A stretch of DNA of 64,000 nt, taken from positions 1 to 64,000 of the forward strand of contig QPGO01000116.1 of NCBI GenBank assembly GCA_008632985.1. Reading direction: 5' to 3'. Shown here piece after piece: positions 3,001 to 54,669 of this stretch. How positions within the stretch are numbered: the first letter of the stretch is position 1; every line of letters starts with the position of its first letter. Source of the stretch: Psammoneis japonica. Its lineage: Eukaryota. A program made the position numbers and the translations under genes. A model generated the notes under the pieces. It was not told the origin of the DNA and searched no databases. It saw only the letters and a program-made list of their open reading frames with translations.

Positions 3001-4396
3001 CACCACCAAGGAGAAGCTCTACATTGTAGCCGGACCCGAATTTGGCAATCTCGAAGGACACATCCTTGTCATCCACAAGGCCCTGCATGGACTGCACAGC
3101 TCCGGTCTCCGCTGGCACGAGCGCTTCGCCGACTGCCTGCGAGCTGAAGGCTTCTTCCCCTGCCGTGCCGAACCCCACATTTGGATGCGCAGGAACGGCG
3201 ACCACTGTGAATGCATTGCCGTTTATGTGGATGACCTCGCCATTGCTGTGAAGGACCCTCAATCTTTCGTTGATGCTCTCACGGAAAAGCACAAGTTCAA
3301 GCTCAAGGGTGCGGGACCCATTGAGTTCCATCTGGGTTGCGACTTTTCCCGGGATCCCGACGGCACCTTGTGCCTGTCTCCGTGCAAGTGCATCGAGCGC
3401 ATGGTCGACAGCCACACCCGACTGTTTGGGGAGAAACCTGCCACCAACGCCCTGTCACCGCTGGAGAAGGGTGACCACCCCGAGCTGGACACTTCCGAAC
3501 TGCTGGGGCCCGATGGCATTCACAAGTTCCAGTCTCTTGTTGGTTCACTCCAATGGGCAGTGTCCCTTGGTCGAGTTGACATTGCCACAGCCGTCATGTC
3601 ACTCTCTGGCTTCCGAGCTGCGCCCCATCAAGGCCACTTGGATCGTGCCAAACGCGTCTGTGGGTGCCTCTCCAAGATGCGACACGGCGCTCTCCGCATT
3701 CGCACGGAAGAGCCCGACTGTTCGGATCTCCCTGCTCCGGCCTGTGAATGGATGCATTCCGTGTGCGGCGAAGCAGAAGAGATGATCCCGAAGGACGCTC
3801 CACCGCCCCTTGGCAAGTTCGTCACTGCCACCCACTACGTCGATGCAAACTTGTGCCATTGCATGCTCACCGGACGCTCTGCCATGGGAATGCTCCACTT
3901 CCTCAACAAATTCCCGGCTGATTGGTCCTCTAAGAAGCAAGCCACCGTGGAGACTGCGACCTGCGGGTCTGAATTTGTTGCCGCAAGGACTTGTGTCAAG
4001 CAGATTGTCGACCTGCGCATCACCCTGTGCTGCCTTGGCGTCCCGATCCACAATGTCAGTTGCATGTTCGGTGACAACAAGTCGGTTGTAGACAGTGCCA
4101 CCATCCCGCACTCCAAGTTACACAAGCGACACACCGCACTGTCGTTCCACCGTGTGCGTGAGGCAATTGCCTCTGGTTGCCTTGAGTTCCACTTCATCGA
4201 AGGCTCCCGCAACCCTGCTGACATTCTCAGCAAGCATTGGGGTTGCTCCCAAATCTGGGACCTTCTCCGCCCCCTCATGTTCTGGAACTTCATTCCATCC
4301 GAAGTCGAATCTGTTTCTGTGGCTCCTCAAGCAAACTGGGGAGTGACAGGATTTGAACAGGATTTGGGTGCGCGCGAAGCATCGCGCGCTGTTTAG
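1..4396 (+). pseudogene. Frameshifted, hypermutated copia gag-pol (PR-IN-RT-RH)
   Basis: ORF pieces 266-898, 691-1500 and 1592-4396 lie in different frames. Many conserved Tyr are replaced by Cys/His. Confidence 0.9.
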
Positions 4397-4619
4397 TTTA
4401 CCGTGCACAGTTTTGTGTGCTTTAGTTCCGCGCGTTCACGCGCGATGTAGTTTGCTTTCGAGCCACAAGGCTCACAAGAACAATGACAGTAGCCCGATTG
4501 TGCCAACTCACACGTCTTTCGGCTCCTGCAACGGTCTCTGAGCGGAGACTCATCTGCCATTTAGACAGCAGTGAGGAGTTGTTGTTTGAATTCTTGCCAT
4601 TTGCCTTCAATTTCTGTCA
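4344..4619 (+). repeat. 3' LTR, family A (276 bp)
   Basis: TG...CA termini with 6-bp inverted repeat. Near-identical to 6352-6627 and to the reverse complements of 26470-26745 and 33115-33389. Confidence 0.95.
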
Positions 4620-4938
4620 GGCCCAGTGCAGGATTGCAGCCCTTGCACAGGCCCGCACTTCGAGACCAGTTGGGACACTCCACCCATGGCTTCCAAAGCT
4701 GCAGTCTTTGCACCCCGCAAACCACGTGCTGCCAACCTCCACGTGTTGACCACTGTCACCCTTCACAGTCTTCGTTTGGGAAGTGATGGAGATGACAACT
4801 TGCTTCTCACATCTCCTGATGGGGGAGCCTCCTTTTCCCGTCATTGAATCTGTTCACAACAGTTCAACCGGTTCATCAGATCAGGAGTTCAGGACATCCA
4901 AGCAGCTTCGTTGTCTTCGGATCCTCCAAGCATCGCAC

Positions 4939-5808
4939 CATGAGACCAGGCCTCCTGACCAGATGCTCCAAGTCTCGTACCTCGAGACCAGGACTCCTGA
5001 TTGGATGCCTCAAGTCTCGTGCCTCGAGACCAGGCCTCCTGATTGGATGCCTCAAGTCTCGTGCCTTGAGACCAGGCCTCCTGACTGGATGCTCCAAGTC
5101 TCGTACCTCGAGACCAGGCCTCCTGATTGGATGCTCCAAGTCTTGCACCTCGAGACCAGGCCTCCTGATTGGATGCCTCAAGTCTCGTGCCTCGAGACTG
5201 GGCCTCCTGGTTGGATCCCCCAAGTCTCGCACCTCGAGACTGGGCCTCCTGATTGGATGCCCCAAGTCTCGCACCTCGAGACCAGGTCTCCTGATTGGAT
5301 GTCCCAAGTCTCGCACCTCGAGACTGGGCCTCCTGATTGGATGCCTCAAGTCTCGTGCCTCGAGACTGGGCCTCCTGATTGGATGCCCCAAGTGTCGTAC
5401 ATCGAGACTGGGCCTCCTGATCGGATGCCCCAAGTCTCGTGCCTTGAGACCAGGCCTCCCAACTGGACTCTCCACGTCTCGTGCCTCAAGACCGGGCCTC
5501 CCAATTGGATCCTCCACGTCTCATACCTCAAGACTCGGCCTCCGGATTGGATCCCTCAAGTCTTGCGCCACGAGACTCGGCCTCCTGATTGGATCCCCCA
5601 AGTCTCGCACCTCAAGACTTGGCCTCCTGATTGGATCCCCGAAGACTCGTGTCACAAGACTGGCAAGTCCTTTTGGATCCCAGAAGTCTTGCAGCACGGG
5701 ACTGGTTGCCCCAATCAGACATCTGCAGCCTTGCACCACAAGATGTCTTGCTCCAATCCGATCCCCGAAGGCTTGCACCTTGAGACTCGTTTCTCCAATT
5801 GGATCAGT
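4939..5808 (+). repeat. 42-bp tandem repeat, about 20 units (consensus peptide LETRPPDWMPQVS[Y/C/H])
   Basis: CTCGAGAC at 4981 and 5023 gives a 42-bp period. Units degenerate towards the 3' end. Confidence 0.95.
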
Positions 5809-6351
5809 CTCTCAGGAGATGCAGCTGAGCTTGCAATCGGATTGGTGGAACACAAGACCACCGCTTGTGCCTTTGAACTCATGCTTGCTCTGTTCCCCGA
5901 GTCGTGCAAACGCCATGCCACCCTGCACGAGCACTGCTCTGTTTTTCTAGCAGCAGCCCAGTGTGGCAACCGTCCCAAGAACCAACAGACGGCCATCAGT
6001 CTTTATGACCTTTGCTCAGGAAGTGAAGGCGATGTCAACTTGTTTGCATTGTCCTGCAATGTTGCCCCGCCGTTCAACATTGTCAACCAGACCAAGCTTT
6101 GCTCCTTCCATTGCAAGTGCGGATGTGGAATCCCACAAGATCCCAAGTGTGCCTTGAGCTTTGAAAAGCACAACGGCATCTGCAATTGGGGAGACGCAGC
6201 TCATCTCAAGATGACCCACTTGGAGAATGCAACGTTGCTCTCGGATCTTGATCCTTTCTTGTCTCCTCATGTTTTGGTGCTTTGACTCCAAAGTTCTTTG
6301 TTCAATCCAAAGTCGAATCTGTTTCTGTGACTCCTCAAGCAAACTGGGGAG

Positions 6352-6627
6352 TGACAGGATTTGAACAGGATTGAGGTGCGCGCGAAATGTCGCGCACTGT
6401 TTAGTTTGCCACGCACAGTTTTGTGTGCTTTAGTTCCGCGCGTTCGCGCGCGATGCAGTTTGCTTTCGAGCCACAAGGCTCACAAGAACAATGACAGTAG
6501 CCCGATTGTGCCGACTCACACATCTTTCAGCTCCTGTGACGGTCTCTGAGCAGAGACTCATCTGCTGTTTAGACAGCAGCAAGGAGTTGTTGTTTGAATT
6601 CTTGCCATTTGCCTTCAATTTCTGTCA
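6352..6627 (+). repeat. LTR, family A (276 bp)
   Basis: Preceded by PPT AACTGGGGAG. Termini TGACAG...CTGTCA. Confidence 0.95.
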
Positions 6628-7149
6628 AGGTGGCTCACCATGAGATGCTGCAGAAGAGCAGCCTTTGCAAAAAAATCCCACCAGATGGACAAGGCAATGT
6701 TGGCACAGAAGAGAGCTGCATGAGCAGAGGCCAAGGAAGAACATCTGGCCACCGCCTGTGTTCATTCTTGGAGCAGCAGTCTGAAGGTGATGTGGGGTGT
6801 GATCAAAACCCCAACAAGTTTCCACCCAACAGGGGATGACAGATGCCCAAGGACCGTGGTGCAAGCATGTGGCATGCTGTCAAACTGGCGCAGCTGATCC
6901 AACATGCAGCACACCACATCAACAGGCAATGACTGTGCAGCATCGCCAATGTCAACAGAGCCTCTTCCAAAGGTGGGGGGGGCTGATCTGCAGACCTCAT
7001 CACATGCTGTCTTGCAACAACAACACTCCATTGCAAACTTTGTGGAAGTGGCAGAAAGTGGGGAACTTGATGATGCCAATGACCTTGGTTTCCAGTTTTG
7101 CACAGTGACCAAGGAAGACAATGAAAGGGGATCAGCTGACTTTCAGCTG

Positions 7150-8130
7150 ACTTTCAGCTGACACACCAGGCACAAGCAGTCAGATGATGGTGGCATGCAC
7201 CAAAGCTGGACATTGACCAGCAACCAGCCCATGTGCAACACATTTGTGAGTGCAGGCATGCTCCAGAACATCCAGCCAAGGCAAAAGAGAAATGTCAGGT
7301 CACTTGCAACAACCATGAATTCAACACATTCATCATCCACAAGAACAGCAGCAGCACCCAGAAATTCAAAGAGCCCACATCAGGATCACATTTCTGTGAC
7401 ACCACATCACCAGAGCATCAAGCACAAGCAGCCATCACACTGGTCAATGGTGGTCAACACGGTTGCAGGAAACAAGGCCACACGCTTGGCTTGCCATGAT
7501 GTCAAGCAGGCCCAACCAGCAAGAACAATCCAGAATGAAGACCATGACACCAAATTGCAGGGGCAATCACCCTCTGACCAACCAGGAACACCCAAGGCAG
7601 ACACTTCTTTGTCAGCCTTGAGCCAGGATGCCACATCAACTTCTGGAGCTGTGGAAGCCATGAATCCAGGCACTCCTGAGAGGTGTGGGGGATGACATTG
7701 CTGCTGCTTGTTTCAGCAACGCCAATTGTGCTGACAGTTGTCATGTGATGCAAAGGCCCTGAACTGGGATGATCATTTTTGTGCCCCTCGCCCCAATCTT
7801 TTTGCACTTGGCATGGCAGAACACTGTTGCATTTTCAACCTTTGAGTTGGAGGTTGTTGTGATGAAGACAATCAATGCATTTTGCTGCACACTGTGGATG
7901 GACCCGCTGGTCTCTTCTGAGACAATGAAGCCACATTTGAGAACCCCAAGTCAAACAGAACCTGCACTTGAAAAAAAGTGCAACACAGCTGCACATGTCA
8001 ATGAGCTCATGCAATGCAGGTGGCTGGAACATCACAGGTTGCATGGGGAGGAGGACACAGAAATTCAGCCAATGTTCTCACCAAGTTGGTGCCTGGGCTG
8101 ACTCATCAGTTGCATCTTAAACATGACTGG
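7150..8130 (+). mobile_element. Highly degenerate relic of another copia family
   Basis: Fragments AKAKEKCQVTC...FIIHK...FKEPTSGSHFCD and VNTVAGNK...DVKQAQPARTIQ resemble diatom copia pre-integrase regions. NSANVLTKLVPG (~8065) resembles the RNase H C-terminus. Recognised by eye only. Confidence 0.5.
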
Positions 8131-9704
8131 CAGCATCATTTTCAGCAACCACAAACCCATTCTCTTGAAAGACAGAAAAGCAAAGGACAAATGCAATGGA
8201 CACACAGTTTCCATGGCTGCCTCTCATGGGTTGCTGTTTTTGCAGTGTTCATTTTGCTTCTCATCACTGCAGCCAGAGAAGAAAACAAGGGGCTGGCCAT
8301 TTGAGCAAACAGCAGATCAACAAACCCTGTCCATGCTCTTTGAGATGGGGACAAAGAACTCTGGGAATCTAGAAGCATGAGAGTGCAACATGCAGCAGAT
8401 GGGGTCATGACTTGGGGTGCATGCTCTCCAAGTTAGGATGAAGCAATTGTGGTTGGTGTTGCAACCGAAATGAAGTTGGCAGCCCAGCTGTGTTCCAGCA
8501 GCAAATGGACAGATCTTCTGCTCTTCTTGTCTCTCAACAACAATGCTGACCACAATTGGAAGAATGTCTTTGATGTCAAGCACAAGTCGCAAAGTGGAAA
8601 TGCCATGCCAGTGTGGAACAAAGGTGCAGAGTTCATGTGCTGCTTCTTCACATTGGATGGTGATGCACAAAGCAAATGTTCTCAGTTCAAACTTGATGGG
8701 AAAAAAGTGGCACCAATGATTGATGATTGTTTTTGGTGTCCAATCTAAACTCAAACAGAAGAGACTGGAGTGGCTTTTTGCAGCCTGTGAACAGAAAAAC
8801 AAGCCAAACTCTTCCAGAGTGGCGCGCCACACATTTTCCAGCTCTGAATGGAGTGGTGAATGTTCTGTTGCACCACCAAGAGAAATCTCAGTCAATGTGA
8901 AACAGCTTGCACTTTCTGGCAGGTGTGGGTGGATGTGTCAACAAATTGAGTTGCCCTGGGGTTCATGATGCCTGCAAAAAAAAAAACCATCACAGGCCCC
9001 ACTGTGCACTCCAACACCCCAGCCTTCTTTTGCACCAATTCAAGAACCCTTGGTGCATCAAACAGCTCTCCCAACTCATCCACCAACAAGACAAACCGCA
9101 GGGGAAACCCCACCCAATTCACCAACAACCTTGATGCCTGCCCAGGATCCAACTTTGACACCAACAAATTTCTCCAACAGCCCAAACACTTGATCCTGTG
9201 GCAAGAGCAACATTGAGCCCAACAAGTTTGCCAACCACACTGCAAACATTGAATCCTGTGTCACCTCCCATGCTGTCTGTGACTCAGGGACCAACACCCA
9301 TCCCTTCAAACTCAACCATGCCCATGCCAAATTCAAACCCCTGCTTCATTTTAAACACCTTGTCCAACACAAAAAGAGCCTCACCTGTCCCAGCAAGGCA
9401 TCTCACTCTGGCACCAGCTGGTGCACCAAAGAAGGCCCAAACACTGCCAGAAGTGAGCGACAATGACAAGAAAATTAAAGTGGCTTCAGAGCTGGGGGTC
9501 CTTGGGTGCTGGCAGGAACGCCAAAACAACAATGAGTGCAAATCTTCAATGTGTCAGAGTGGTGCTTGTGTGGCATGGTCTGCTTGCTTCCCAATCAAGC
9601 ACAAAACTGGCATGCACTCTTTGACAAAGACAGAGCCAACAATCAACACTGTGTTTGATGCCTCTGCTTTTTTTGACTCAAGCGGCCACCAAGCTTGTGC
9701 AGCA

Positions 9705-10138
9705 TGCATGCAGACAAAAGGTCATTTTTGTCATGCCCTTTGTGACATTTAAAGGCTGTGACACGTCGCCGTGACACATTAACTCTTGTCAGCAGCTGTG
9801 GGTTGCACTCCTCCCCATGCATCGCGCGTCCATGCGGCTCTTTACTAACGTGTGCTGCTGACACTGCACGGTTTTGGCGGAACAGTGTGGGTGCGTGCGA
9901 AGGAACACACAGAACTGCACAGAGTTTTGCGCGTTCGACAGTGATCAACGTTGCTGCAGACAACTCCCACTCAGGGTTTCGAACCCCTGGCCTCCTGCCT
10001 GATGGTTGCGATGCACCACTCCGCTGTGAATTCATGATGCAGTGTGCATGCAGACAAAAGGTTATTTTTGTCACGCCCTTTGTGACATTTAAAGGCTGCA
10101 ACACGTTGCCGTGATGCATTGGCTCTTGTTGGCAGCTG
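9705..10138. repeat. Pair of ~94-bp imperfect direct repeats (9705-9798 and 10045-10138)
   Basis: Both read TGCATGCAGACAAAAGGT.ATTTTTGTCA.GCCCTTTGTGACATTTAAAGGCTG...GCAGCTG. Confidence 0.85.
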
Positions 10139-11209
10139 CACATTGCACTTGGCACAATCAAGTTGACCAGACATGCAGCATGATGCAAAGCTGCACCATG
10201 TTCGCGGAGAAGATGGAGGTGCTCAATGTCTTTGTGGTGGATCTGTTTGAGTTGGACTTGTCATTTTGTGATTTTGGATGCCATGGAATTGATCGACTTT
10301 TGTGCTGTGACACAAAACGCACCCACGATTTAGGCTGCAAATGCTTCCCTGTTGGAACCTGTCTTCAAATCGTCCTGGTCATTCACAACTCAAGGCGGTG
10401 TGGTTGCGCAGGTCATGCCAATGAAAATGTTGCCACTGCAACAATGCATCCTGCCTCCTCTCTGGTGTTGGCACATGAGCTTTGTCATTCGCTCTTTGAA
10501 CCAGGCAATGAGTGCCATTGTGGGCGTGGCAATGACTCGGCCTCACGGGGAAGGCAAACAAGCCAAAAGGTTGTGACAGAGTGAAGTGCATCCCTGGTTG
10601 CACAAACAAGGCCTTTTTGGTAAAGGCGATCCAAGCGGACTGCCCAACCGCTAAAGTGTGAAAGCTGTTTCTATTTAAAATGATTTGAGGGTCTTGTCAC
10701 TGGCTTGTCAATTTTGTTTTGGCCAAAAGTTGTCATCCAGCATGTGTCGAATTGCACTGCTCTCCCAACACCCCGTAGAGTCTTTGGGACTGCCCTTGGG
10801 TCTAAAGTCAACGACGCTCGTGTGTTGGCCCCGCAAGATTGCCGAGGTAGACAAAAATCATGGTGGGCAATTCAAATCCCGCGTCTTGGAGGGAATCCTT
10901 GCCACGCACCACGGCGAGTTGAAAGCCACCGTTTGTCGCGGCAAATGAAATGATCCAAGCCAGAGCTTCTCCGTCTGACGACGCTTGGCAAAAGGAAGGA
11001 AAACACTAGTCTAGTTGGAGAAATTTGATAAATAGGAAAAAATACAGCCCGCATAACCGAAACGATTTCTCAAAACTGTTGCACGACGAAAGTGTTTGGA
11101 GCAGCAGAGCACGCGAAGAAGGCATCTTGCCGAGGGAAATGCGTTGTAGGATACAAGAAATTTGAAGAACACCTCACGAAATACTGCATGGATAGTTTCC
11201 AAACGTGGC

Positions 11210-13126
11210 TCACAGTTCATCACTCTTTGCCGTGACACTTTCAAGCATCTCCTTAGCTTGCAATGGAGTATAGCCATATTTCTTCATGTTGCCACTCAAC
11301 GTTTCCCAACTTGGAGAGTATCGATCATAACAGCAAAACGGAGACACCTTGTCCAAGTGGTCAGAGCAACCTTCACTCATATGAAATGCATCCATGGTTG
11401 AATTCCAGATAGGTATTTTCACGGATCTCTGCTCCCTCTCCTCGGCCTTGAAGTTGATCTGTGCTCGAAGAGTGCATTCGGAGACGAGACAGTTACACAT
11501 ATAAAGAGTCCAAACCTCTCCATCACCTGTCCTGATAGATAAAAGACGGGTCCAAGTTTCGTCGTTTGTTTTTAAACCCGGTGAAAAGCGCAGCACTCTA
11601 CTCCCCGGAAAAGCGCCGTCAAGTTCATAATGTAAAACAGATTCGGTTGCCGTCATCTCTGTGTCTTTCCTCTCCACGTATCCAAAGAAGCGTAGTATAC
11701 CGCCCACTACCATTTTCATGGTCCAGTCGGAAAGTGGAGTCCCCGTTACGTCTCCATTGTTGGGTAGCCAGTCTCCTCTATCAATCTTGGTACAGATGGC
11801 GACCTTCCATGGAAACAACATCGATAAGGTAGTGGCACCTGTTACTCTGTAGCTTTCAATCTGGGTGTGAAAGTCATATCGAGGAGCCAAGACCTCTCCG
11901 ATCATCTCGAATGCTTTGCCCCTGACCCAGTCAACATTTACAATTGAGGGGTTCTGATGAGTTGTGTAAAAGGCAAGGTGGAAGGAAACGTCGTTGTTTC
12001 GGATTAAAGTGGCATTAAAGTGGTTGGCGACCGTTCCAAGACTTTCGTGCTCTTCAAAAAACACCTTGGGAGATGAGATCCAGGTTGGTGCAATGTCGTT
12101 TATTCTTCGGAGGACCTTCAAATCGTACATTAACAAATGATTCTCAAAAAACTGAGATACGTCAAAGAGCCACGGCAGCGATCGGCGGGTGAGTTCCTCT
12201 GGCTTCTGCTGGGCTTGCCAGTTTCCATTATCGGTTCCATGAAAGACTTCAACCCTTTTCATATCCGGCACAGATTCCCATAAGACTGTGTTCATAGCTA
12301 ATATGTCCATTTGACGCTTGGGCATCTTCAATTCCAAGTCTTCACTGGGGCATGGCGTGTTTCCCTCTGCGTCATAATTTACTTCGAGAGACTCGCCTCT
12401 TTGACGATACTCCTGAGCAAGCGCCAAATCCATGGCCATTTTTCGAATCATCGTCTCCGTCGAAACAAACAAGTCGTGCTCTCGAGGGAGCTGGTGAACG
12501 TCGCAAGCCGCAACCACGAGGTAGTCAATGGGAAATCCAATGGATTCCAGGTGCGCCGCAAACTTCTCACCGACATACCTCGACATTCCGTTTCCTGCAT
12601 ACCCATTGGTGAAAAACAAATGCGCACCTGCAGAAGTCTCTTTGGTAACATTTTGGACAACCCTGTCGACGCCCAATCCCCGCGCAATGTCTTGAGGAAA
12701 AAGAAACAAGGTATGGTACCTCGGCGACAAGTAGTCCTCAAAGGAATGGCATGCAAAGAGAAGCTCGCGGTGCGATACTACGACGAGAATCCTTTCACTG
12801 TCAATGCTTGGGCCATGGATGGTCCAAGTATGCATCTGGTGAAGGACATCGTTATAAGGCCGTTCCGTCTTGTCCAATAACGATCGTTTAATTGGCATGG
12901 TGCGCCGTTCTGCTTCTTCCTGATGATGGGCGGGGTGGATCAAGAGAGCATTTTGGCCAATCATTGATGCATAAAGGATGTTCCACATCCCACAATAGAG
13001 TAGCAAAAGGGAGAGAATGGCAAAGATGTGACTCTTTGCTGTTCGCATTGCCCTTCTGCCTCCATTTTGAAGCCGGGTACACAATACACTATGGTTCGAA
13101 GCAGCAGTCCTGTTTGTGGCATCCAT
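11210..13126 (-). CDS. Uncharacterised ~638-aa protein with N-terminal membrane anchor (type II membrane protein-like)
   Basis: Uninterrupted ORF with normal Tyr and TpA content and a hydrophobic segment IFAILSLLLLYCGMWNILY. Start taken at the ATG at 13126 and is uncertain. Confidence 0.75.
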   Translation of the reverse strand: MDATNRTAASNHSVLCTRLQNGGRRAMRTAKSHIFAILSLLLLYCGMWNILYASMIGQNALLIHPAHHQEEAERRTMPIKRSLLDKTERPYNDVLHQMHTWTIHGPSIDSERILVVVSHRELLFACHSFEDYLSPRYHTLFLFPQDIARGLGVDRVVQNVTKETSAGAHLFFTNGYAGNGMSRYVGEKFAAHLESIGFPIDYLVVAACDVHQLPREHDLFVSTETMIRKMAMDLALAQEYRQRGESLEVNYDAEGNTPCPSEDLELKMPKRQMDILAMNTVLWESVPDMKRVEVFHGTDNGNWQAQQKPEELTRRSLPWLFDVSQFFENHLLMYDLKVLRRINDIAPTWISSPKVFFEEHESLGTVANHFNATLIRNNDVSFHLAFYTTHQNPSIVNVDWVRGKAFEMIGEVLAPRYDFHTQIESYRVTGATTLSMLFPWKVAICTKIDRGDWLPNNGDVTGTPLSDWTMKMVVGGILRFFGYVERKDTEMTATESVLHYELDGAFPGSRVLRFSPGLKTNDETWTRLLSIRTGDGEVWTLYMCNCLVSECTLRAQINFKAEEREQRSVKIPIWNSTMDAFHMSEGCSDHLDKVSPFCCYDRYSPSWETLSGNMKKYGYTPLQAKEMLESVTAKSDEL

Positions 13127-13787
13127 TTTTATTCCTGTTTTGATTGTGTGAGTCTTTGCCAGAGACTTATTGGAGAAGAAGCGAGGGCTCATTGATCGAT
13201 CCGCGGTGCCAACAATAAGCCACTCAACGCAACTTTTCAACGGACGGAAAATTTTCTGCTCACGTGTTTTTGGTCCCGCGCATGCATCTGTGACAAAACC
13301 ACGTGGAGGTTCTACTTCACAAGTGGAAACCCACATGATTCCTTGAACATCAACCAAAATCGATGCAGCATCGATTGGTTTCTTTGGCTTGAACTGTTTA
13401 TCTTTTACGAGATTGTGATGCTCTATGGTCCGGCAATGGCATCACGGCAACACGGCATCGCACACACTGTGCTTTTTTTGCCCTGCGCCGATCTCTAACA
13501 TTGATTTTAATCAAAGACGGTTTTGATGATAAAGCAGCAGTGTTTTGGTGTGCCGCGGCATCATGCGCGGCCTTTGCGCATTGATTTCTCACATTTCCGT
13601 TGAAAAGATGCTTCAAAACCAAAACACTGCAACTGTCACCCCTGTGGTAGGGGAGAATATGGTGATGTCATGGTTACGTGGCAGTTTATATCTTATTCAT
13701 TTTATATTTTTACACAAATGTCCTCACATTTGTTTGTGCATTTGCACACAAATGCCAATGGCAACAGGAAAAATCCTGAACCATGTT

Positions 13788-13923
13788 CTCCCCCAAAACT
13801 CCAACCACCAAAAACCGAGGGGTCGGAAGCACACTTTTGGGAGCTCTTTTTCTCCGCACAAAAAACACGCGTTTTGACAACTCGACCATGACGACCTCCC
13901 GTTCTTCGTCCCCTGCACCTGAC
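13788..13923 (+). repeat. Left terminal inverted repeat
   Basis: CTCCCCCAAAACTCCAACCACCAAAAACCGAGGGGTCGGAAGC...ACCATGACGACCTCCCGTTCTTCGTCCCC is the reverse complement of 20182-20320 with few mismatches. Confidence 0.92.
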
Positions 13924-15869
13924 TGCTCCTCCGTCCACACATGTGCCGAACCACCTTCTTCTCCCGTTTCTGCTGACATGCGTGGTGTGCTTCCTTCTAG
14001 CGGGATGCATCAAATTTTGGGCAACCAACATGCTGCTGCTGCACATGATGTTTGCACGGATGCTGCCGCTTCCAGCCAAATTGACGGCACCTTTTCCGAC
14101 GACGCTGCCTCCGCATCCATCTTGCGGGTCTCTCTTGATGTCTTCCAAAAGGCTCCGTGTGCTTGGCAGAGTGACATGTTGCGCCATGTGCTTCAAACAG
14201 GTCCCACTCGTCCCGCGCAACCTTTGTTGCTTGTCCGCCCCACTGGTGGTGGAAAGTCCCTTGTGCGAGACATTGTTGGTGTTTGCCTCAAGGGTGTCAT
14301 CCTCACGATCGTTCCCTTGTTGTCCTTGGGCTCGGATCAATGCCGTAAAATCATGAACCGTGCCATGCAACATCCATCACACGGTCCTGTTGCTTCCTTC
14401 CATTTGGATGAAGCACTCCAAAATCCATTGTGCATGCAGGCGTTTTATTCTTTGATGCAACGTTTGCCAATGGCGGTTCGTGGGACGACATTCCTTTTTT
14501 GTTCGCCTCAGTTGCTTGTGTCCAATGAGCAGCTTGTGAATCTCATTCTGAGATTTGCATCCAACGGATTGCTGCGGCTCCCAGCCTTGGATGAAATTCA
14601 TCTGTTTGTGAGTTTCGGGCTTTCTTGTCGGGTGGAGTTTCAACAACTTCGCAATGTCTTTTTCCATCACATTCAGCGGTGTTCCATTCCATTCCTCCTG
14701 ATGACGGCAACCTGCACTGTGCGTGCCGTCTCGTCCATGGAGGGTTTGATTGGATTCAAAATTCAAGACTGCTGTTGGCCACCTCCCTGGCATGTGATGC
14801 ACAGGAATGTTTCGTTCCTTGTTTCTTGCAGTGACCGCCCATTCACGGTGACATCCAATGTGCTGGCTCCGTTGCTGGGTGCTGCAACTGACGCGACCAA
14901 ATGTGTTGTGTGCTCTAACCGCCGCACAAAAATTGAATCCTTCCAAACAAATCTTTGAGATGTGGCTGGATCACAGCGACGCATGCCATTTGTTGGACGT
15001 CATTTTGCTGGTTGGTGCGCTCACCAAGGAACAAAAGGCTCACCACAATTCAACATTCATTGAAACAGATGCGTCCACACCCGGACGCTCCCTGTCGACC
15101 TCGGTTTCTTTGTGCCACAAGTGGTGCTTCCAATGCCGGCATCGATTCTCAACACATTGCCGGTGTTTTCCAAATTGATTTCCCTCTGTCCATCATTGAC
15201 ATGAATCAAGAGAAAGGCCACGCTGGACGCAGTGCGGCTTTGTCTGGTTGCTTCTACCAAGCTTTCATTTCTCTTGAAACTTTTCTTCATTTGTTCCTTC
15301 GCATCACAGACCCGGCGGAAAAAAAGGTCTCGCGCGATGCACGGCGAAACGAGCTTCATGACTTGATGCAGGTTCTCCGTCTGCTTGTTTTGCCCGTTTG
15401 TTGCCATCAAGCATCCTGGGAGGTGCTGCATTCTCATCCGACGCATGCAAGGATGGTCGACCCCCGTTTTTTGAATCCGTGTGGAGCCTGTGCCCATTGT
15501 CACGGAAAACACTTGGATCTCCACCCCGCTTTGAATCGTCCGGGCATTGTGTCCATGCTGTTCAATGTGTTCGTGCATGGCGAACATGCAATCCGGAACC
15601 TGCGCCTTGTGGATGCGGTTGTCGATGCCACTCACCGGTTCCCCGGCGCACCAGCTTTGTTGTTCCGAATCTCTGCGGCAAAGGTGGAGCCCAAGGTGGT
15701 CAAGCAAACCATCTTGGTTCTCATTGCGGCTGGCATGCTTGTTTGCGAGCCCACTGAGGACGAATCCAACAAGCATTGCATGACGTCAGCCCTTGCATTG
15801 GTTGCACCCGGCGCTGCGGAATTTGCAATGCATCACGATTCGTTTTGGGATTGTGTCCGCACCAAATAA
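13888..15869 (+). pseudogene. RecQ-like superfamily 2 helicase (frameshifted)
   Basis: Motifs RPTGGGKS (I), IVPLLSLGSDQ (Ia), LDEIH (II), MTAT (III), ATSGASNAGID (V) and QEKGHAGR (VI), plus a Cys cluster CCH...CGACAHC (RQC-like Zn site). Frame change near 14950-15080. Confidence 0.9.
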
Positions 15870-15919
15870 GAACAGTGGCAGTGTCACCTGCAACAGTCAC
15901 AAGTGATTGACAAACATTG

Positions 15920-18900
15920 TCACACAAGCGATCGCAGCCGATCAAATGCTTCTTGTGGCATTGCATCAACTTCTTCACCGGTGTTTTCACGAAACAAGGG
16001 ATCCTCCAATGATTCCCAAAGTCTTTCCTCACGTGCTTTTGCCCGACATCGTGTCTGTTGTAAATTTTTCTTTTCCATTTTTTCTTTGCCTACTTCAAAG
16101 ACGTTCTTGAATCCAAGGACGTTCACCGCGGCCTGTGTTATTTTGCCTGCGTTGCGATTGCCCACTTTTACATCAACCATCTCCGACGCAAACACAGACG
16201 CACCTTGTTCCACTTCATCTTCCGTCTCCTCCTCCGTTTCCTCCGCCTCATCATCATGAAGCGCACCAATCATCATGGGATCCATTGTCACCAATGCACC
16301 AGGCTCATTGACATTGTCATCCGATGTGTGGCTTGCTTGTGCCAGCCCCTCGAGCTCTTCCGCCATTGAAGCCGCAGCTCCTTCCACACGTGTCTCGTCC
16401 TCGTTCCCATCATTGTCGTGTGTCGCATCCGCCACCGACGACAGCAGCATCTCTTCCTCCGTCTGACAGTCTTCTAGCCAACGTTCCATCCTTTCGTCTT
16501 CTGTCTCCGCGTTCAATTCGGTCGTGAGGTTGGGCAATTCCTTCCAAAACAAATCCCGGCTGCATCTGCGTCCAGGGATTTCTACTGTGGCTTGTGTCAA
16601 ATGAAGCAACTCGGCTGCCAACTGCTTCTCAAGCACTCGGCTTGGCACTGACGTGGCCTTCTTTTGGTTGTCGCTGTCACGCTTGGGGTCGTTGTCCTGC
16701 AGGTCCACGCATTTGCGCTCAAACGTCTCGCTGTCTGCCAGCCTAGCGCACTCATTGGACGAGAACTGGATGCACTTGGCAATCATCGCTGCATTGCCAG
16801 AGTGCGTCTTCCAACCTTCGATTGTGTTCTGGAAATTCATCTTGTGGCAATGCCGTTGCATCAACTCTGTCAATCCATCCAGGGCCCAGCATGCCATGGG
16901 GTTGCCGGACCGGTCTGTGCCCTCGTAAAGAGGGTGGGCGCGGTTTGCTCGCATCATTTGCAACACTTCAAAAGGTGGCTTGCCACACAACTGTTCAATG
17001 GTTTCGACGCCAATGTTAAAATGGTGCGTCTTGCCTGCTGCCAAGAAGACAGGATTGAACGAGTTGTACAGCCACTTGATCACAACGGCATCGCCACACC
17101 TCACCGACGCCTGGAACAAACGACAACAGTGAATCAGTTTTGCATGTTGCAGCACCATGCAAAACACTTCATCGGCAGTCGTCGACATGGCTCTGTCCAC
17201 CCACGCCATGTGTTGCTCGGATGCGAACAAAGCACATTCGCCAGGTCCTTGTAACGCGATCCACTGATTGCACAATTCGTTGTCATTCAACAGCACAGTG
17301 CAAAAGGTGTTTGTGAGTTGACGTTCTGCTTCGGCACCCAACATCATGGCCATTGCAGCGGCTTGTTGGTGGCACTTTGTCACGTCTGTTCCACGGATCC
17401 GCTTCCACCCCAGTGCAGCTTGGAATGGCTGCAGCAACGACCCGCAGTGCAGAGCATAAATGGCACCCAAAAAATGGAAGCTGCCTCCATGCAGATCACC
17501 TGTAGAGTTGATGACCTGCCCCATCGCCTTTTCCAACACGCCAGCGGCAACATGCCAGTCCACGTGGCTGTGCGCCGAGGCCTGCATCAATTCCCGGAAG
17601 GACTTGACTCACATCTGAGACAGTCCATCACCCACCACCATCAACCAACGTGTCCGGTGGTCGTCAGCAAGGGCTGGGTCTTGCACAGCCTCGCCCGAAA
17701 CACCACGGGAAGACGTCGCCTCAATGATGTTGAACAGTTGCAAAAGGCCCAATGCCACCTTACCCGCGCCCTTGTCAGTGGTTTCGTCCTCACAAGAGAC
17801 AGCAGGAATCATGACGGAAACCCGTTTTGGCATGCCCCGCCAAATCTGCGCAGCACTACGTTGGAAATTTCGACAAGACTGGTGGAACCCCCGAGGCACG
17901 CGATTCGGAGACAGCCTGATTGTGACGTTCAGGGATTTCATGGTGTCTGCACCAGTCGCATTCTGAAAGGCAAAGACGGTGTCTCGGTCACGAGGAATGC
18001 AGTGGCGCTGCACACAAGCCATGGATGCCAAGCGAACAACACTCGAGCACCGAGAGACACGAGTGCCTGTGGAATCCACACTGTCAAAGAATGCGTCAAA
18101 GCACTGGACGTCGATGATGCGGGCATTGTTGGCCAGCGTTGGTTCAACAGTGTCACAGGCCGGCATCCCGAATGGCGATGGTGTCGATTGATCGACGCAG
18201 GTGATGACAGTCGGAGGCAACAGGGCCGTGGGGCAAGCGTCAAATCGAGGTGGCACGTGCGGCTTTACAAACATGCGAGACGCAGTTTTGGTCACCGCGG
18301 CGGATTCACCCTGGCGTTGATGTTTGAGGCTGCCAACAATCTGAAACCAAAGAGTCGCCAAGGCAAAGTGCGTAAAGCAAGTGCTCAAAGGGCAATGGTC
18401 ACTGCCACACAGTGTGTCACTCACCTGAGAATTGTCAAAAATGGCAATTCCAAAGTTGCCGGAATCCTTTGGGGTCTCATTGGTTTCTGAAAGGACCGTG
18501 GCATGGCTGGCAAAGGGACGCATCTTGCGCAAAAGAGTGCTCTGATGCGCCGACTGGCCAAAGCAAACAGACATCTTGGAACGAGACGCAGAATCAAAAG
18601 AGCCACAGGACGCAGCAGCGTTGCAGCACGCCCACCATGTGAACACTTTAGGGTTCCGGATGCGCATGATCGACATGAAGACATAAAAAACAAATCGATC
18701 CCAGACAGGAAGCAAGTGTTGCGCGCGAGATTGTTCTTTGCGAGCCTCGCAGCTCAACAATGAGCTGAGAACAATGTAACACTGCGGCATCGTTTCGCGA
18801 AACCGCTTTGCCATGTCGGTCAGGGCAACTTGAGACAGAATTGGAGAAGTTAATTCGATGAAACGACCAAAACAGGCACGCAAGGCATCCTCACACTCCG

Positions 18901-20220
18901 TCTCTACAAAATCACAAAAGGACTTCAATGCTTGGTCGTCCGAATCAATGGTGAAGAGTCGCCTGATCCGGTCAGTCAAAATTTCGCCAGACTTGCAGTG
19001 CGCCAGTTGAGCATCCTTTTCGTTTTTAAGCAAAACCATGTCATGCTCACGACAAAGAACATTGACCGCGTGGCCATCCCCCCACAGCTCCTGCAGACAT
19101 CAGTTCATCATGGCGGCGCGACGCTTTGTGTCCTTCATTTTCTTCAATTGCGTTGCAACGTTGCCCGCACGAGGGGATGCCGCCCACAACTGGAATGCAG
19201 TTACATTGTGGAACACATCCGAGTGCTTTAACTCATGTGAAGGAGCATCAGGGAGAGCGGCAGGTGCAGCACCAACGCCGCCACCACCGGCGGAAGTGCA
19301 TGGATGGGAAACTTCGGATGGCGTCAAATTGGGTTTGATGAGTTTCTCCCGTGATGGATTGGAGCACACCATCATTTCAACACTGTAGAAAAAGCTGTTG
19401 CACATCCGAACCGCCGAAGAATGGTGCTTTGCACAGACGGACCGGAGGAGTGGTTGCCACGTTAAATGGAAGGTGGGATGCGATGGCGATGCAAGCACAA
19501 CGAATTTGGTTCCAACTTGTAGCCTGACAACATCTTCCAGCATTAAACGCCGATGGCCGGAAGAAAGAATAGATGGCACAGTGTCCCACGGCATGCCCGG
19601 AAGTGGCGGCGGCGCTTGTCATTGCGAAGACGTCTTGGTTTCTGCAATTCCGATTCCGTGTTGCAGGAACGAGCAGGAAGCTTCCTGTCACCAGCAGAGG
19701 AGCTTGACGGTCGCCGCTTTTCATCAGATGGGTCAAGCTGAATGTCAAAGTCATGCATGGCCTCCTTGACAGCATGCGAGGTGTTGGGCGGAGAGAAGGA
19801 AGCGGCCGAGCAATCTGCATCAATGATGGGATCACGGAGAAAAGCAAGCATCGCATCTTTGAACAACTGAACCTTGACGTCGGTTTGTTGCTTTTGTTTT
19901 TTGACCTGTTTTCGGAGCTGCACCCCAGACCGCTTGAGAGAAGGCTCATCTGTGCCTTCCATGACATGACGATGCGAACGAGAATCCAGTTTCTCCGGGG
20001 ACGCAATGACAGGAGTGGACCAATCACGGCGCTGTGTTTGTGTTTCAGGCACAGGATCCGGCGAACAGAAGCCCAAATCCTCCGGATGGCAAATCGGCTG
20101 TGTTTGGGTAACGACAGCGGGTGCAACGGCACCGGCCAACACAGGAGGAACTGCCGCATCAGATGTGGCAGGCGGGGACACGTCAGGTGGTGTGGGGGAC
20201 GAAGAACGGGAGGTCGTCAT
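15920..20220 (-). pseudogene. Large transposase-like gene (Academ/DUF6589-like), disrupted
   Basis: ORFs 17609-19039 and 15920-17590 are in one frame, separated by a single TGA (probably CGA to TGA in GDGLSQM*VKSF). Motifs IFDNSQ, VVGDGLSQ, GDLHGGSFH and LDGLTE. Probable 84-bp GT-AG intron at 18341-18424. The 5' part is in other frames. Confidence 0.65.
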
Positions 20221-20320
20221 GGTCAAGTTGTCAAAACGCGTGTTTTTTGTGCGAAGAAAAAGAGCTGCCAAAAGTGCGCTTCCGACCCCTCAGTTTTTGG
20301 TGGTTAGAGTTTTAGGGGAG
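20182..20320 (-). repeat. Right terminal inverted repeat
   Basis: GGGGACGAAGAACGGGAGGTCGTCATGGT...GCTTCCGACCCCTCAGTTTTTGGTGGTTAGAGTTTTAGGGGAG. Confidence 0.92.
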
Positions 20321-20736
20321 CTGTGGAATGGGAATTTTTACTTGTGGAATGCACACACTCGTGTGGATGTTAAGATTGAAACTCAACGCACGGCGAAGCC
20401 GTGCGCGCACAACCACGCACACACACACAGCTCCCCTGCCACAGGGGTGTGCAACTGTCACCATGGCCTGCACCGGGCTGAGCTTCCAAATGATGGCTCA
20501 AGTGGGGCAAGCCAATTTCCAGTCAACAAGCTGAAAAATTTGTTCATTTGCAGGAGCTGATTCTCCTGAGCACACGCACACACGCGTGGGATCGCATTCA
20601 ACGATTTCGGTGCTCATGGTGTGCGATTCGCTTTTCGTCTTGAGGATGGTCTTAAGTCGACTTTTTTGGCATGCTCAAGGAAGCAGTGAGGTGGCACGAC
20701 CTCGAAAATGGGGGAGCTGTCAAATCAGCCACGCGT

Positions 20737-26469: not shown

Positions 26470-26745
26470 TGTCAGAAAATGAAGGCAAATGGCAAGAATT
26501 CAAACAACAACTCCTTGCTGCTGTCTAAATGGCAGATGAGTCTCCGCTCAGAGACCGTCACAGGAGCCGAAAGACGTGCAAGTCGGTACAATCGGGCTAC
26601 TGTCATCATTCTTGTGAGCCTTGTGGCTCGAAAGCAAACTACATCGCGCGTGAACGCGCGGAACTGAAGCACACAAAACTGTGCACGGTAAACTAAACAG
26701 CGTGCGACACTTCGCGTGCACCCAAATCCTGTTCAAATCCTGTCA
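26470..26745 (-). repeat. 3' LTR, family A
   Basis: Reverse complement of the 276-bp LTR. The PPT complement CTCCCCAGTT follows at 26746. Confidence 0.95.
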
Positions 26746-29700
26746 CTCCCCAGTTTGCTTGAGGAGCCACAGAAACAGATTCGACTTCGGATGGAATGAA
26801 GTTCCAGAACATGAGGGGGCGGAGAAGGTCCCAGATTTGGGAGTGACCCCAATGCTTGCTGAGAATGTCAGCAGGGTTGCGGGAACCTTCGATGAAGTGG
26901 AACTCAAGGCAACCAGAGGCAATTGCCTCACGCACACGGTGGAATGACAGTGCGGTGTGTCGCTTGTGTAACTTGGAGTGCGGGATGGTGGCACTGTCTA
27001 CAACTGACTTGTTGTCACCGAACATGTAACTAACGTTACGGATCGGGACGCCAAGGCAGCGCAGGGTGATGCGCAGGTCGACAATCTGCTCAACACAAGT
27101 CCTTGCGGCAACAAATTCAGACCCGCAGGTCGCAGTCTCCACGGTGGCTTGTTTCTTAGAGAACCAATCAGCCGGGAATTTGTTGAGGAAGTGGAGCATT
27201 CCCATGACAGAGCATCCGGTGAGCATGCAATGGCACAAGTTTGCATCGACGCAGTGGGTGGTGGTGACGAACTTGCCAAGGGGCGGTGGAGCGTCCTTCG
27301 GGATCATCTCTTCTGCTTCACCACACACGGAATGCATCCATTCATGGGCCGGAGCAGGGAGATCCGAACAGTCGGGCTCTTCCGTGCGAACGTGGAGAGC
27401 ACCATGTCGCATCTTGGAGAGGTGCCCACAGACGCATTTGGCACGATCCAAGTGGCCTTGACGGGGCGCAGCTCGGAAGCTAGAGAGTGACATGACGGCC
27501 GTGGCAATGTCAATTCGACCAAGGGACACTGCCCATTGGAGTGAACCAACAAGAGACTGGAACTTGTGAATGCCATCGGGTCCCAGCAGTTCGGAAGTGT
27601 CCAGTTCGGGGTGGTCACCCTTCTCTAGAGGTGACAGGGCGTTGGTGGCAGGTTTCTCCCCAAACAGTCGGGCACAGCTGTCGACCATGCGCTCGATGTA
27701 CTTGCGCGGAGACAGGCACAAGGTTCCGTCGGGTTCCCGGGAAAAGTCGCAACCCAGATGGAACTCAATGGGTCCCGCACCCTTGAGCTTGAACTTGTGC
27801 TTTTCCGTGAGAGTGTCGACGAAAGATTGAGGGTCCTTCATGGCAATGGCGAGGTCATCCACATAAACGGCAATGCATTCACAGTGGTCGCCGTTCCTGC
27901 GCATCCAAATGTCGGGTTCGGCGCGGCAGGGGAAGAAGCCTTCAGCTCGCAGGCAGTCGGCGAAGCGTTCGTGCCAGCGGAGACCGGAGCTGCGCAGTCC
28001 ATACAGTGCCTTGTGGATGACAAGGATGTGTCCTTCGAGTTTGCCAAATTCGGGTCCAGCTACAATGTAAAGCTTCTCCTTGGTGGTGGCTCAAGGCAGG
28101 CATTGCCAATGTCGGTGGCCCATGTCTCCAGCTCGTTGAGTTCGGCCAGGAAAATCATCAGCCGAAGGCCACGAAGGGAGACTGCTCCGGAGTAGACACT
28201 GTCGATGGGTACGTCCGTGAGGTGCCCGTTGGCTACGAGTCGTGCCTTGTGGCAACCGTCGTGTTTCACGTCGTACACCAGGTGCACTCGGATCTTCTTG
28301 TGTCCCGCAGGAGGAGTGGAAGACTTGAAGGGCCCGCAGTCATGGAAGACTTCGCATTCGTCGAGTTGGTCCATCTCGAGATTGGTTGCGTCTCCCCACT
28401 TGCGGTTGCCGTTGCGTTCGTCTAGTGACATGGCGTGTTTGCAGTTCCGGGGAACTTCGTATCCACACTTGCAGCGAGGTGCAGTGCGGAAGGAGCGAAG
28501 CTTGGCTTGGTTGGCCATGCGAAATAGCTTCTTTTGGCGCCTCGCGATGGTGCGGAACCGCTTCCAGCCATCCATGTCGAGGAGTCCGTTCTCTCGTGCA
28601 TAGATGGCACAGGTGACGGGGTCGTCCTTGGCGATGATGGCAAGAGGCTCGGACGTGATCTCCCCACTTTCCCATTCAAGCATGATGTTGTAGCTGGAGC
28701 CTTTCCAGGTTGGGTCGTGAGGCTTCAGAGGTCCTTCGTGCGACACGATGCGTCGAAATTTCCAAACAGTGGTGTCTTCGTCTTCTTGCTCAATGTGATT
28801 CATGATGTCATTGCAGGCAAGGACTTCCTCGTATTCGTCATTGTTGACAGAGCAGACGAACTTAGTGAGCTCGGGATTGCCGTTCACTNNNNNNNNNNNN
28901 NNNNNNNNNNNNNNNNNNNNNNNNNNNNNNNNNNNNNNNNNNNNNNNNNNNNNNNNNNNNNNNNNNNNNNNNNNNNNNNNNNNNNNNNNNNNNNNNNNNN
29001 NNNNNNNNNNNNNNNNNNNNNNNNNNNNNNNNNNNNNNNNNNNNNNNNNNNNNNNNNNNNNNNNNNNNNNNNNNNNNNNNNNNNNNNNNNNNNNNNNNNN
29101 NNNNNNNNNNNNNNNNNNNNNNNNNNNNNNNNNNNNNNNNNNNNNNNNNNNNNNNNNNNNNNNNNNNNNNNNNNNNNNNNNNNNNNNNNNNNNNNNNNNN
29201 NNNNNNNNNNNNNNNNNNNNNNNNNNNNNNNNNNNNNNNNNNNNNNNNNNNNNNNNNNNNNNNNNNNNNNNNNNNNNNNNNNNNNNNNNNNNNNNNNNNN
29301 NNNNNNNNNNNNNNNNNNNNNNNNNNNNNNNNNNNNNNNNNNNNNNNNNNNNNNNNNNNNNNNNNNNNNNNNNNNNNNNNNNNNNNNNNNNNNNNNNNNN
29401 NNNNNNNNNNNNNNNNNNNNNNNNNNNNNNNNNNNNNNNNNNNNNNNNNNNNNNNNNNGACAGTGTTCGCCATGCGCTTCACGGTCTGGTGTCGACGTTC
29501 GGCAAAGTTTTGGTGTTGCTGGTGAGGCTCACTTTGCCAGCTAGAGATGAAGAGGGCGCGCAGGATCCCGAGCACTTTGTTGCTGATCTCAACTTGAGCA
29601 CGGTCGCTAATGAGTTTGGATGGGGCACCACGTTCACGGATCTGATCCTCGAGTGTGTTGACAAACTCTTTGTCCGTCTTAGTGCCGCAGACGTCAGTGA

Positions 29701-32169
29701 CGGTAGACTCGGTGCCAACAAACAGTTGGGCGCTGGTGCAACCAGAGTCGATGGCCGGGGTGTCGGCACAAACGGTGTCAGTGGCGAGAGGCTCGTTGCG
29801 GAGGTGGAACGTCATCGCCCTTGGGGTCAATCGCACGCAGATGACACTCGTAGAACACGTCGTCGTTCGGAATGAGGTGATCATCGAGGGCGGACGCGTG
29901 ATCGGCAGACAAGGAAGCGGACAAGATGGTCTCGTTGACAACGACACGGTGACGGTAGTTGCCGCATTCGTCAAATGGGTTGGCAGTGGGATCGTCCTGC
30001 AGGTCAGAGATCGCGTCGCACCACTGGTCGTCGTCAGTGACAGAGTGATCGAGGACGGAAGGGTCCCATGTGTCATCACCGGCAAGGATGACATGGGGCA
30101 GGGTGTCCCATTCGGCATCAGTGCAAGGTCGCATGGCAACACAAGGCAGGCCAGCCTTGATGTCAATGGGGATGACATGGCCATCAGGAGTGGCAATGCG
30201 TTGCAAGCCGTTGGGCACCTTGACAGAGCGATCGTTGACATCCTGTTTGTGCCATTCGAGCTGGCCGCAGGAATGGATGGTCTTGCCCTTTCCCGTGCAT
30301 GCGCACTGATGGAGGATGGCGATGACGGGACCACGCTGGGTCTCAATGACGGCACCAGCGGTGACAATGGGGATGTCCACCAATTGATGATCGTCAATGC
30401 CCTGAACGTCGACTTGGCGAGAGGTGCGTGCAATGACGCGAACGTCGTCGCCAGCAATGCCGCCGTTGGCCCCACGATCGACTAGAGCGCCAGTGCGTGT
30501 GGAGCGATGAGCAGAGGCAGAGTAAATGACATTGTGGTTGTGACGCGGCGGCAAGTGCGGCCGTTAAGTTCTGTGTCATCTGCAGAAGCTGGCGGGGTAG
30601 AGGAAGCGGCGGATGGCCCGGTCGACTGGCATTGGGGGCTTGGTTAGGAGAAACAGACGTTGCAGATCACCGGGTGGCAGTGGCTTGCGCTTGGTGAGGT
30701 GCGCCAGGATGGGATCATCCAAAGTGGCGTCCACATGTGTGGCGGGGTCACCACAGTCAGCAGGAGTCGTGTTGGACAAGTTGACATCACCGTCACTCCC
30801 AAGGTGTTGGTCGTGAAGGTTGGCCGTAACAGACTCATGGCAGTTGCTGGCTCGCGGGTTGCGGGGAGGGGACGAGAATGCTCAAGGATGATCGCCTTGG
30901 AGGAATCGGGCAACGAATCCCAGAGCCGTTGGTGGTCGGGAGGGAGACGTCTCCATTGGACACCGGTGAGGCTGGGACCGCGGGTGCAGGCAGCATTGGC
31001 TTGAAGGACGTCAACGTCGCTGTCAATGTCGTAGAACACATCGTCGGACGGTTCCTCGGAGCAGATGTCGTGTGCGTGCATGGCGCGTCGGGGAGCTCTG
31101 GGTGTCGTCTTGGGTTGAAACGTGCTGTCGTACTGAGCTGCCGCGGAGAGGAGCAAGCCACAGCATTGATCGTATGTGAGGCTCTTGCCACTCTGCGCAC
31201 GATGCTGATCAGCTTGGTTCTTGACAGCACGGAGTTCCTCGACAGGGTGCACGGCATTCTCGAGCATGACGCACTTCTGTCCTTCAGAGAAGTGGTCACT
31301 GGCAGGGATGAGTGCCTCGCACTTGCACAACTGATCTTGCCAATGAAGGATGAACCCGTGGGTCGGACCTTTCCAAGTGCCATCACCAAGACGTGCGGTG
31401 GTGAGGTGCGTGAGCAGGGTGGAGGACTCGATGGATGCACGGGTGGAGGCAAGCGTGCACTCAGACAAGGAGCGGCAGACGGTCTGTGCGTCAGAAGACC
31501 CCACATTTTCGCGAATGAGAGCCTTGCCCTTGTCGGTGAGAAGGATGCGTTCGAAGACGGCGAACATGTGCTTTTGCTGTTCAGCAAAGAGCAGTTTGTC
31601 TTCGGGCTGGTCGGTTTGTACGACGAGTCTAGAATGCACTCGACGTCTTGGGCACGGGCTTGTGCCACAAGTGAGGTGTGCCAAGTGTGCCACTGCTTGT
31701 CGGATTTGAGAGCCGTGAAAGCGGTGGGATCACGCTTGATGCCTCGCTTGAAGTCTCGCACCGGGTCGCGTGCCTTGGTCGGGTTGGTGACGTGTGGAGG
31801 TGCAAGGGGTGAGCTGCCGATGGACACAGAAGACATGCAGTCGGGGCTGAGGCGGCAGGCAAGGAACTCGTCATGCGCGAACAAAGAGGAGTCGTTGGCA
31901 ACGTCAAGACCTTTGTGTGCTTTGACAATGCACAGACTGACCAGTGCTGCTAACATGTTCTTATAACCACGGGGCAAAGGGATTGCATCAGTGCCATTGT
32001 CGCACTCAAGCGAGTCGATTTGGGACGGCATGAACGTGAACAGTTCCTGATGCGAGTCCGTGCCGTCTTGGGCCAAAGCCAAACGAAGAGGACTTCCAGC
32101 ACCTTGGGCAAGCACGGTTCCAACAACGTGCTCGAAACCATCGGTTTGTTGCTGACGAGTGAGAACCAT
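26693..32169 (-). pseudogene. Frameshifted copia gag-pol
   Basis: Gag from MVLTR (ATG 32169) with DFKRGIKRD, protease LVDRGANGG, integrase SEPHQQHQNFAERR, RT AVYVDD and RNase H. Split over several frames. Confidence 0.9.
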
Positions 32170-33100: not shown

Positions 33101-33114
33101 CAAGACTGTTAATC
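33101..33114 (-). promoter_or_regulatory. Putative primer-binding site complementary to a tRNA-Asn(GUU) anticodon arm
   Basis: Directly after the 5' LTR the element reads GATTAACAGTCTTG, the complement of CAAGA-CTGTTAA-TC, which is a 7-nt anticodon loop with GTT. Confidence 0.6.
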
Positions 33115-47895: not shown

Positions 47896-48057
47896 GGTTG
47901 TAGAGACCAATTTGCGCGTTGACGAGAGCTCCTGACCGAGTCATCGTCACGGACGCTTTCGGTTTTTGATTTTGAAGCAAACCCGGGAAATAGCTGAGTC
48001 TCTCTCGCTTCTCTCGTCTTCACTCTAACAAGAACCTCCCACACTGCACTCTCTGTC

Positions 48058-54648: not shown

Positions 54649-54669
54649 GCTCTCTCGGTTGAGAGGGAG

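Follow-up and report, generated by a model that had tools for sequence, protein, structure and literature searches.

What kind of mobile element holds two convergent genes between inverted repeats at positions 13,788 to 20,320 of the window (the whole stretch of 64,000 nucleotides analysed here), and what purpose does a helicase serve beside a transposase? A sequence-only reading had proposed an AcademH-like transposon in a probable diatom, or else a related new family. The present analysis favours the former: the element is very probably a cut-and-paste DNA transposon of the AcademH type in a diatom, preserved at full length but dead. The ends, the 9-bp target site duplication (TSD), the many copies, the two inward-facing genes, the DDE motifs and the RecQ-like partner are directly observed. 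The AcademH lineage of the Academ superfamily was reportedly described by Kojima in 2020; it is little studied and its published hosts are animals and fungi, whereas the host here is very likely a diatom.

The boundaries of the element lie further out than was first proposed. The sequence-only reading had taken repeats of ~135 bp as the terminal inverted repeats (TIRs); the inverted repeat is real (13788-13919 and 20189-20320, 132 nt, 93% identity by the repeat finder), but it does not form the termini. A search of the same genome with the 132-bp repeat gave 40 scored matches of 116 candidates. Outside the repeat, ~150 bp of left flank recur at full length in 19 of 23 other left flanks and partially in the other four, and ~130 bp of right flank are common to all three other copies. 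Because this flanking sequence recurs between copies, the 132-bp repeats are internal and were rejected as element termini; the ends (CA..TG) lie at 13637 and 20449. The features of the element are as follows.

13628..13636: left TSD, 9 bp, identical to 20450-20458
13637-20449: whole element, 6,813 bp, bounded by 19-bp terminal repeats and flanked by a perfect 9-bp direct repeat
13637..13655, plus strand: left TIR, 19 bp, beginning with CA
13656..13787, plus strand: left-specific subterminal segment, common to copies and weakly alike to the right segment
13788..13919, plus strand: left inner inverted repeat, 132 bp, putative promoter/5' leader and first 11 helicase codons
13888..15869, plus strand: RecQ-like SF2 helicase gene, ~659 aa
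15920..20220, minus strand: Academ-type DDE transposase gene, ~1,405 aa
18436, 17629, 17476 and 16867, minus strand: candidate catalytic or motif residues D, D, H and E, respectively, from motif reading
18341..18424, minus strand: putative intron, 84 nt, phase 0, directly after FDNSQ, now read through in frame
20189..20320, minus strand: right inner inverted repeat, 132 bp, putative promoter/5' leader and first 11 transposase codons
20321..20430, minus strand: right-specific subterminal segment, common to copies
20431..20449, minus strand: right TIR, 19 bp, one mismatch to the left repeat
20450..20458: right TSD, 9 bp, identical to 13628..13636

The similarity score between the left and right subterminal segments was reached by 3 of 500 shuffles. 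The 19-bp TIR pattern is common to autonomous and non-autonomous copies and has 104 matches in the 91-Mb assembly (reversed control, 0). Target site duplications were surveyed at 30 two-ended loci, namely the window, 9 of 20 regions from one set and 20 regions from another. An exact 9-bp duplication was present at 21 of these (among which L126 and L132 have identical flanks), a 9-bp duplication with one mismatch at six and an exact 10-bp duplication at one, while two had none; a 9- or 10-bp TSD was thus found at 28 of the 30 loci. The collection of genomic copies, by which the sequence-only reading had hoped to define termini and TSD length, has fixed both (19-bp TIR, 9-bp TSD), and its proviso that no other copies might share the ends is contradicted by the terminal matches and duplications.

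Apart from the window copy, one other full-length copy, C259, was found (95.1% identity over 6,817 columns), along with a truncated copy, C2 (83%), and a flipped, deleted copy, C333 (L034:428-9383, G000:C333), which carries a copia-like retrotransposon inside. The remaining copies are mostly internal deletions of 1.0-3.6 kb, or elements of 227-266 bp built of the outer ends alone. Four small derivatives of this kind (L114, L115, L118 and L133) are without the inner repeat, yet their 9-bp TSDs are exact; mobilisation can therefore do without the inner repeat, and the cis signals needed lie within the outer 105-150 bp.

The minus-strand gene of over 1,000 codons, lying tail to tail with the helicase gene, was described correctly at the outset: it has the motifs FDN, GDGLSQ, GDLH and DxxxE, and in C259 a single frame of 1,390 codons stays open throughout. 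The gene of the window copy is interrupted by a frameshift at 19598 and a premature stop at 17609-17611. The suggestion that it probably contains introns holds for one putative intron of 84 nt, but the other frame breaks are lesions of the window copy; several introns behind these breaks were ruled out, as C259 is open across them. The putative intron (18424-18341) is a GT..AG segment corresponding to a 28-residue gap in all nine homologues compared, which suggests that the segment after FDNSQ is an intron. It starts with GT in the window copy and with GC in C259, and ends with AG; the two donor forms are what opposite TpA losses would make from the usual donor.

The plus-strand gene was likewise recognised correctly as a RecQ-like helicase. 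It carries the DEAD and Helicase_C features of a RecQ-like enzyme; helicase motifs I, II, III and VI are present, with PTGGGKS, DEIH and MTAT among the motif sequences, and there is also a Cys cluster. The window copy has +1 frameshifts at 14954 and 15080, and an Arg to His change in motif VI near 15219. Profile matches of the C259 helicase to RecQ (E 1.6e-15) and DpdF (E 8.9e-18) all fall under the cut-off, while an unmutated relative matches solved RecQ, RECQ5 and BLM structures (best E 1.8e-13). Pfam scans of both genes gave no nuclease family, and the accessory gene is the helicase. The two genes end 50 bp apart, tail to tail. With three frameshifts, one stop and TpA loss, the window copy is dead. 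Contigs of run X1 are without the three frameshifts and the stop; this run may be the source sample and is hence not independent.

Nine homologues of the transposase were found at E 1e-154 to 1e-88 (32-38% identical), and a deeper search gave 573 clusters (50% identity) at E<=0.001. Of the Pfam comparison proposed by the sequence-only reading (DUF6589, RecQ), the part that stands concerns the homologues: DUF6589 matches eight of the nine closest, above the cut-off in five, but the element's own proteins stay below the cut-offs (E 0.037 for transposase against DUF6589). Its Atlas neighbours are DUF6589 clusters (features 0.93-0.94; structure TM 0.55/0.77), whose commonest known phyla are Basidiomycota or Mollusca.

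The conserved states of the Academ profile, in the accessible part of its source, are D3-N4, G17, d-q near 191, g-f-f-H near 223 and D450-x3-E454 (PMC5751038 File S1). The homologue alignment has invariant DN, GDG, GGxFH and DxxxE, which agree with the profile in order and span a similar length, with a Gly 14 places after DN in most rows; this match was read by eye from motif positions and covers 5 of ~19 profile parts and single rows. Mismatches are seen at the second Asp (D-G here, D-Q in the profile) and after DN (S/A-Q here, W/F-D in the profile), with no Asp three places after the first.

In the AlphaFold model of homologue P0005 (mean pLDDT 78.5), one of the three acids lies on a strand, one at a strand end and one on a helix; the Glu is preceded by a helical insertion, an arrangement also seen in hAT and P transposases. 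Among VIA entries, integrases, Hermes, P element and Tn5 come closest to the model (Z 7.5-8.4), and the top 22 rows are all integrases or DDE transposases, including ISCth4 (Z 6.4-8.4), where a Z near 8 is in the range that VIA itself calls common. A Foldseek comparison of the model with the PDB gave nothing at E<=0.001, the top entry being RAG1 (E 0.16). The homologue models as an RNase H/DDE fold, and the concern that the minus-strand protein might lack both this fold and Academ similarity is answered by the fold match and the Academ profile motifs.

The element resembles AcademH, as the latter is outlined in the accessible parts of the sources, in having a DDE transposase of the Academ type beside a gene for a helicase (DEAD and Helicase_C domains), in its TIRs and 9-10 bp TSD, and in the small number of autonomous copies (PMC10045372, PMC10799480). 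The TSD length, the Academ motifs, the RNase H fold of the homologue, the RecQ-like partner and the silicon transporters of the genome (discussed below) agree with the AcademH-like assignment first made, and the alternative of a related new family is not needed. Compared with AcademH as known from citing passages, the element may differ in its split terminal repeat (the inner part of which holds both start codons), its invertible interior and its apparently fused sister families.

A separate lineage, sister to AcademH and deserving its own name as an algal clade with its own helicase subfamily, is an unlikely reading. The 573 transposase clusters, the weak DUF6589 scores, the GDLHGG and GDG motifs that are clade-specific in the homologue alignment, and helicase scores far below the RecQ cut-offs would fit such a lineage; against it, every AcademH feature open to testing is present, and Atlas features and structure place the transposase beside fungal and mollusc DUF6589 clusters. 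The tree obtained here, without a root and without a fungal or animal reference, cannot show a separate lineage. Far less probable is a helicase-bearing Kolobok (KolobokH, or one like Kolobok-1_CCri). The excerpted account of Kolobok does include a RecQ gene and a DDE transposase in opposite orientation in one case, Kolobok-1_CCri, and a Kolobok from the diatom Fragilariopsis (PMC9587614), and the element shares the RecQ helicase as accessory protein. The same excerpts, however, give Kolobok TTAA 4-bp TSDs, RR..YY termini and a C/DxxH signature with a zinc finger (PMC9587614), against 9-bp TSDs and CA..TG here, and the transposase motifs follow the Academ profile. In the homologue alignment, read without a Kolobok profile score, the conserved stretch is GDLHGGxFH and no invariant Cys cluster precedes the Glu. 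AcademX shares the Academ transposase motifs and was ruled out by the 9-bp TSD and the helicase without a nuclease, since AcademX has a nuclease and a 3-4 bp TSD against 9-10 bp in AcademH, a difference that the accessible text ties to nuclease versus helicase (PMC10045372).

The copies carry a distinct mutational footprint. The observed/expected ratio of TpA is 0.11 in the element against 0.49 in a neighbouring gene, and 157 of 169 changes at consensus TA steps of the left end led to CA or TG. Between the window copy and C259, 213 of 244 difference events lie in TpA- or CpG-type contexts; the other 31 substitutions (~0.5%) indicate that the insertions are young. The loss of Tyr codons, guessed from the window alone, was confirmed: Tyr makes up 0.4-0.5% of residues against 3.5% in homologues, and at 13 of 15 Tyr columns of the homologues both full copies have Cys or His. 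The copies probably arose in a recent burst and afterwards decayed through TpA-to-CpA/TpG changes and loss of CpG. The same TpA signature, with TpA to TpG/CpA changes confined to foreign DNA, is described in the accessible part of a report on the chlorarachniophyte Bigelowiella natans, where it was measured on integrated viruses, whereas here the footprint lies on a diatom DNA transposon; the word "diatom" has 0 occurrences in the text of that report (bioRxiv 10.64898/2026.01.13.699255).

Local departures from the pattern were also observed. At the left end beside the host gene (13637-13720) TA steps are kept, likewise in C259, and the first 250 bp of the element hold nine TA steps against 0-4 elsewhere. 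In the window at large (1-11000 and 14000-36000), the TpA ratio of repeat DNA is mostly <0.2, against 0.5-0.7 in gene-rich DNA, and CpG is lost in blocks at 7-9 kb, 21-26 kb and 34-36 kb but kept in the element.

From DDE transposase biology, the cut-and-paste steps can be outlined: the transposase would bind the outer ends, excise the element and insert it at another site, where the host would fill in the 9-nt stagger left by the joining. The inner repeat calls for its own explanation. Both genes begin inside the inner repeats with identical first codons, and their start regions are copies of each other. The repeat is probably one promoter and leader present twice, by which both genes would be expressed together, while recombination between the two copies would keep them alike and would have turned the interior round. 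That the interior exists in both orientations is observed: in the window copy and C259 it is the left-type end that carries the helicase, in C2 and C333 the right-type end, and among the 2.2-kb derivatives the transposase start is on the left in 12 and on the right in three. Orientation was read in 29 elements, the remainder being autonomous or without one or both starts. Divergence is greater in the flipped copies as well, so that one or two old inversions are enough to account for them.

The role of the helicase is a more tentative matter. A transposition cofactor, which would unwind or clear the target or strand-transfer intermediate, has a little under an even chance; such a role would agree with the greater TSD length of those Academ elements that bear a helicase. 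It is possible, though rather doubtful, that the helicase instead repairs the donor gap, copies the element or is a passenger. RecQ helicases have established roles in repair and recombination, and derivatives move without a helicase in cis, both of which suit these alternatives; against them, the gene pair is kept in four of six metagenome loci and in several families of the genome, and in two families a single frame spans both proteins. That the helicase is nothing but a passenger is unlikely.

Among the six related metagenome loci, the helicase lies tail to tail in four (L051, L053, L054 and L055); in L052 the contig stops just after the transposase, and L056 (1,158 bp), being too short, lay outside this inspection. 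The window family nests among the tail-to-tail metagenome relatives in a FastTree phylogeny, which is unrooted and has long branches for the fused families. In L053-L055 the termini are of the same CA/C-run kind, and both start codons coincide with, or directly follow, an inner inverted repeat measuring 50-347 bp. No TSD was seen in their flanks, as would be expected if the contigs join flanks of different copies. Within each of these three elements the inner repeats are 87-98% alike, whereas between families they are unrelated, the sole similarity being a 32-bp match of the window family to C28; this pattern points to homogenisation inside each lineage.

In the genome itself, a second Academ family, C273 (L074:2388-9716, G000:C273), measures 7,329 bp and has a 9-bp TSD. 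In this element and its C60 copy (L075), transposase and helicase share one frame of ~2,020 codons with no stop between, and in both copies a decayed minus-strand frame of ~230 codons, possibly a third gene, follows the right inner repeat. C23 (L081:4000-7900, G000:C23) has a very divergent transposase and helicase in the same order, also in one frame. A real fusion of transposase and helicase in the C273/C60 and C23 families is somewhat favoured by these frames; some doubt attaches to it because stop codons can disappear through TpA loss and because a fused protein free of such mutations did not turn up. The search for such a protein gave two unrelated hits among 7,999 scored, and none of 17 long transposase homologues had a helicase domain, both of which are weak evidence. 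Further tail-to-tail families, internally deleted, were also observed, namely C28 (L076:3137-7521, with a 9-bp TSD) and C136, C404, C230 and C55 (L077-L080). In the C136 group the inner repeat measures 635 bp (71%), and the group matches one arm of the 2.2-kb derivatives.

Taken further, the relatives may represent a large undescribed algal AcademH radiation, in which transposase and RecQ-like helicase would form an obligate unit, co-expressed from a duplicated promoter in a split, interior-inverting terminal repeat and fused (~2,000 aa) in at least two families; we put this forward tentatively, as somewhat short of an even chance. If true, the unmutated metagenome relatives would make the helicase role in cut-and-paste elements directly testable. 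Apart from that reading, the shared gene starts, the apparent fusions, the minimal mobile ends of ~230 bp and the relatives with open helicase frames provide handles on the purpose of a helicase in a cut-and-paste element. Furthermore, the fold model would tie the unannotated family DUF6589 to the DDE fold, and the element provides a further clear example of the process that erases TpA, in this case acting on a DNA transposon of young age.

The assignment also extends the range of AcademH to diatoms. No report of Academ in diatoms was found in the freely accessible articles searched, and none of the AcademH papers among the matches listed concerns algae by title. The element is very probably AcademH in a new host group, where supplements or Repbase entries may already list a diatom family. 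The host is very likely a diatom, as first supposed, since the genome has 24 silicon-transporter matches, several of full length, and one window gene encodes a signal peptide followed by an ASAF-like motif, which we take to be a plastid motif. Silicon transporters also occur in other silicifying groups. At one locus (G000:C38:226311-230342), a single open frame of 1,511 codons spans three silicon-transporter units.

Several neighbouring features of the window were recorded. A host-like minus-strand gene of 743 codons without a Pfam match (11210-13441) starts ~200 bp from the left end of the element. Two inverted copies of a copia-like retrotransposon (1-4620 and 26470-33389, 93-96%) have LTR-like repeats at 4288-4587/6296-6595 and 26470-26745/33115-33389, and a 42-bp-unit tandem array crossed by open frames lies at 4793-5806. 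Another copia-like retrotransposon (47655-54906), partly depleted in TpA, has 244-bp direct repeats at 96% and an open frame of 2,216 codons. Lastly, a head-to-head inverted pair (~72%) was observed at 41583-43610, the minus-strand member of which encodes ribose-5-phosphate isomerase A preceded by a leader of plastid type.
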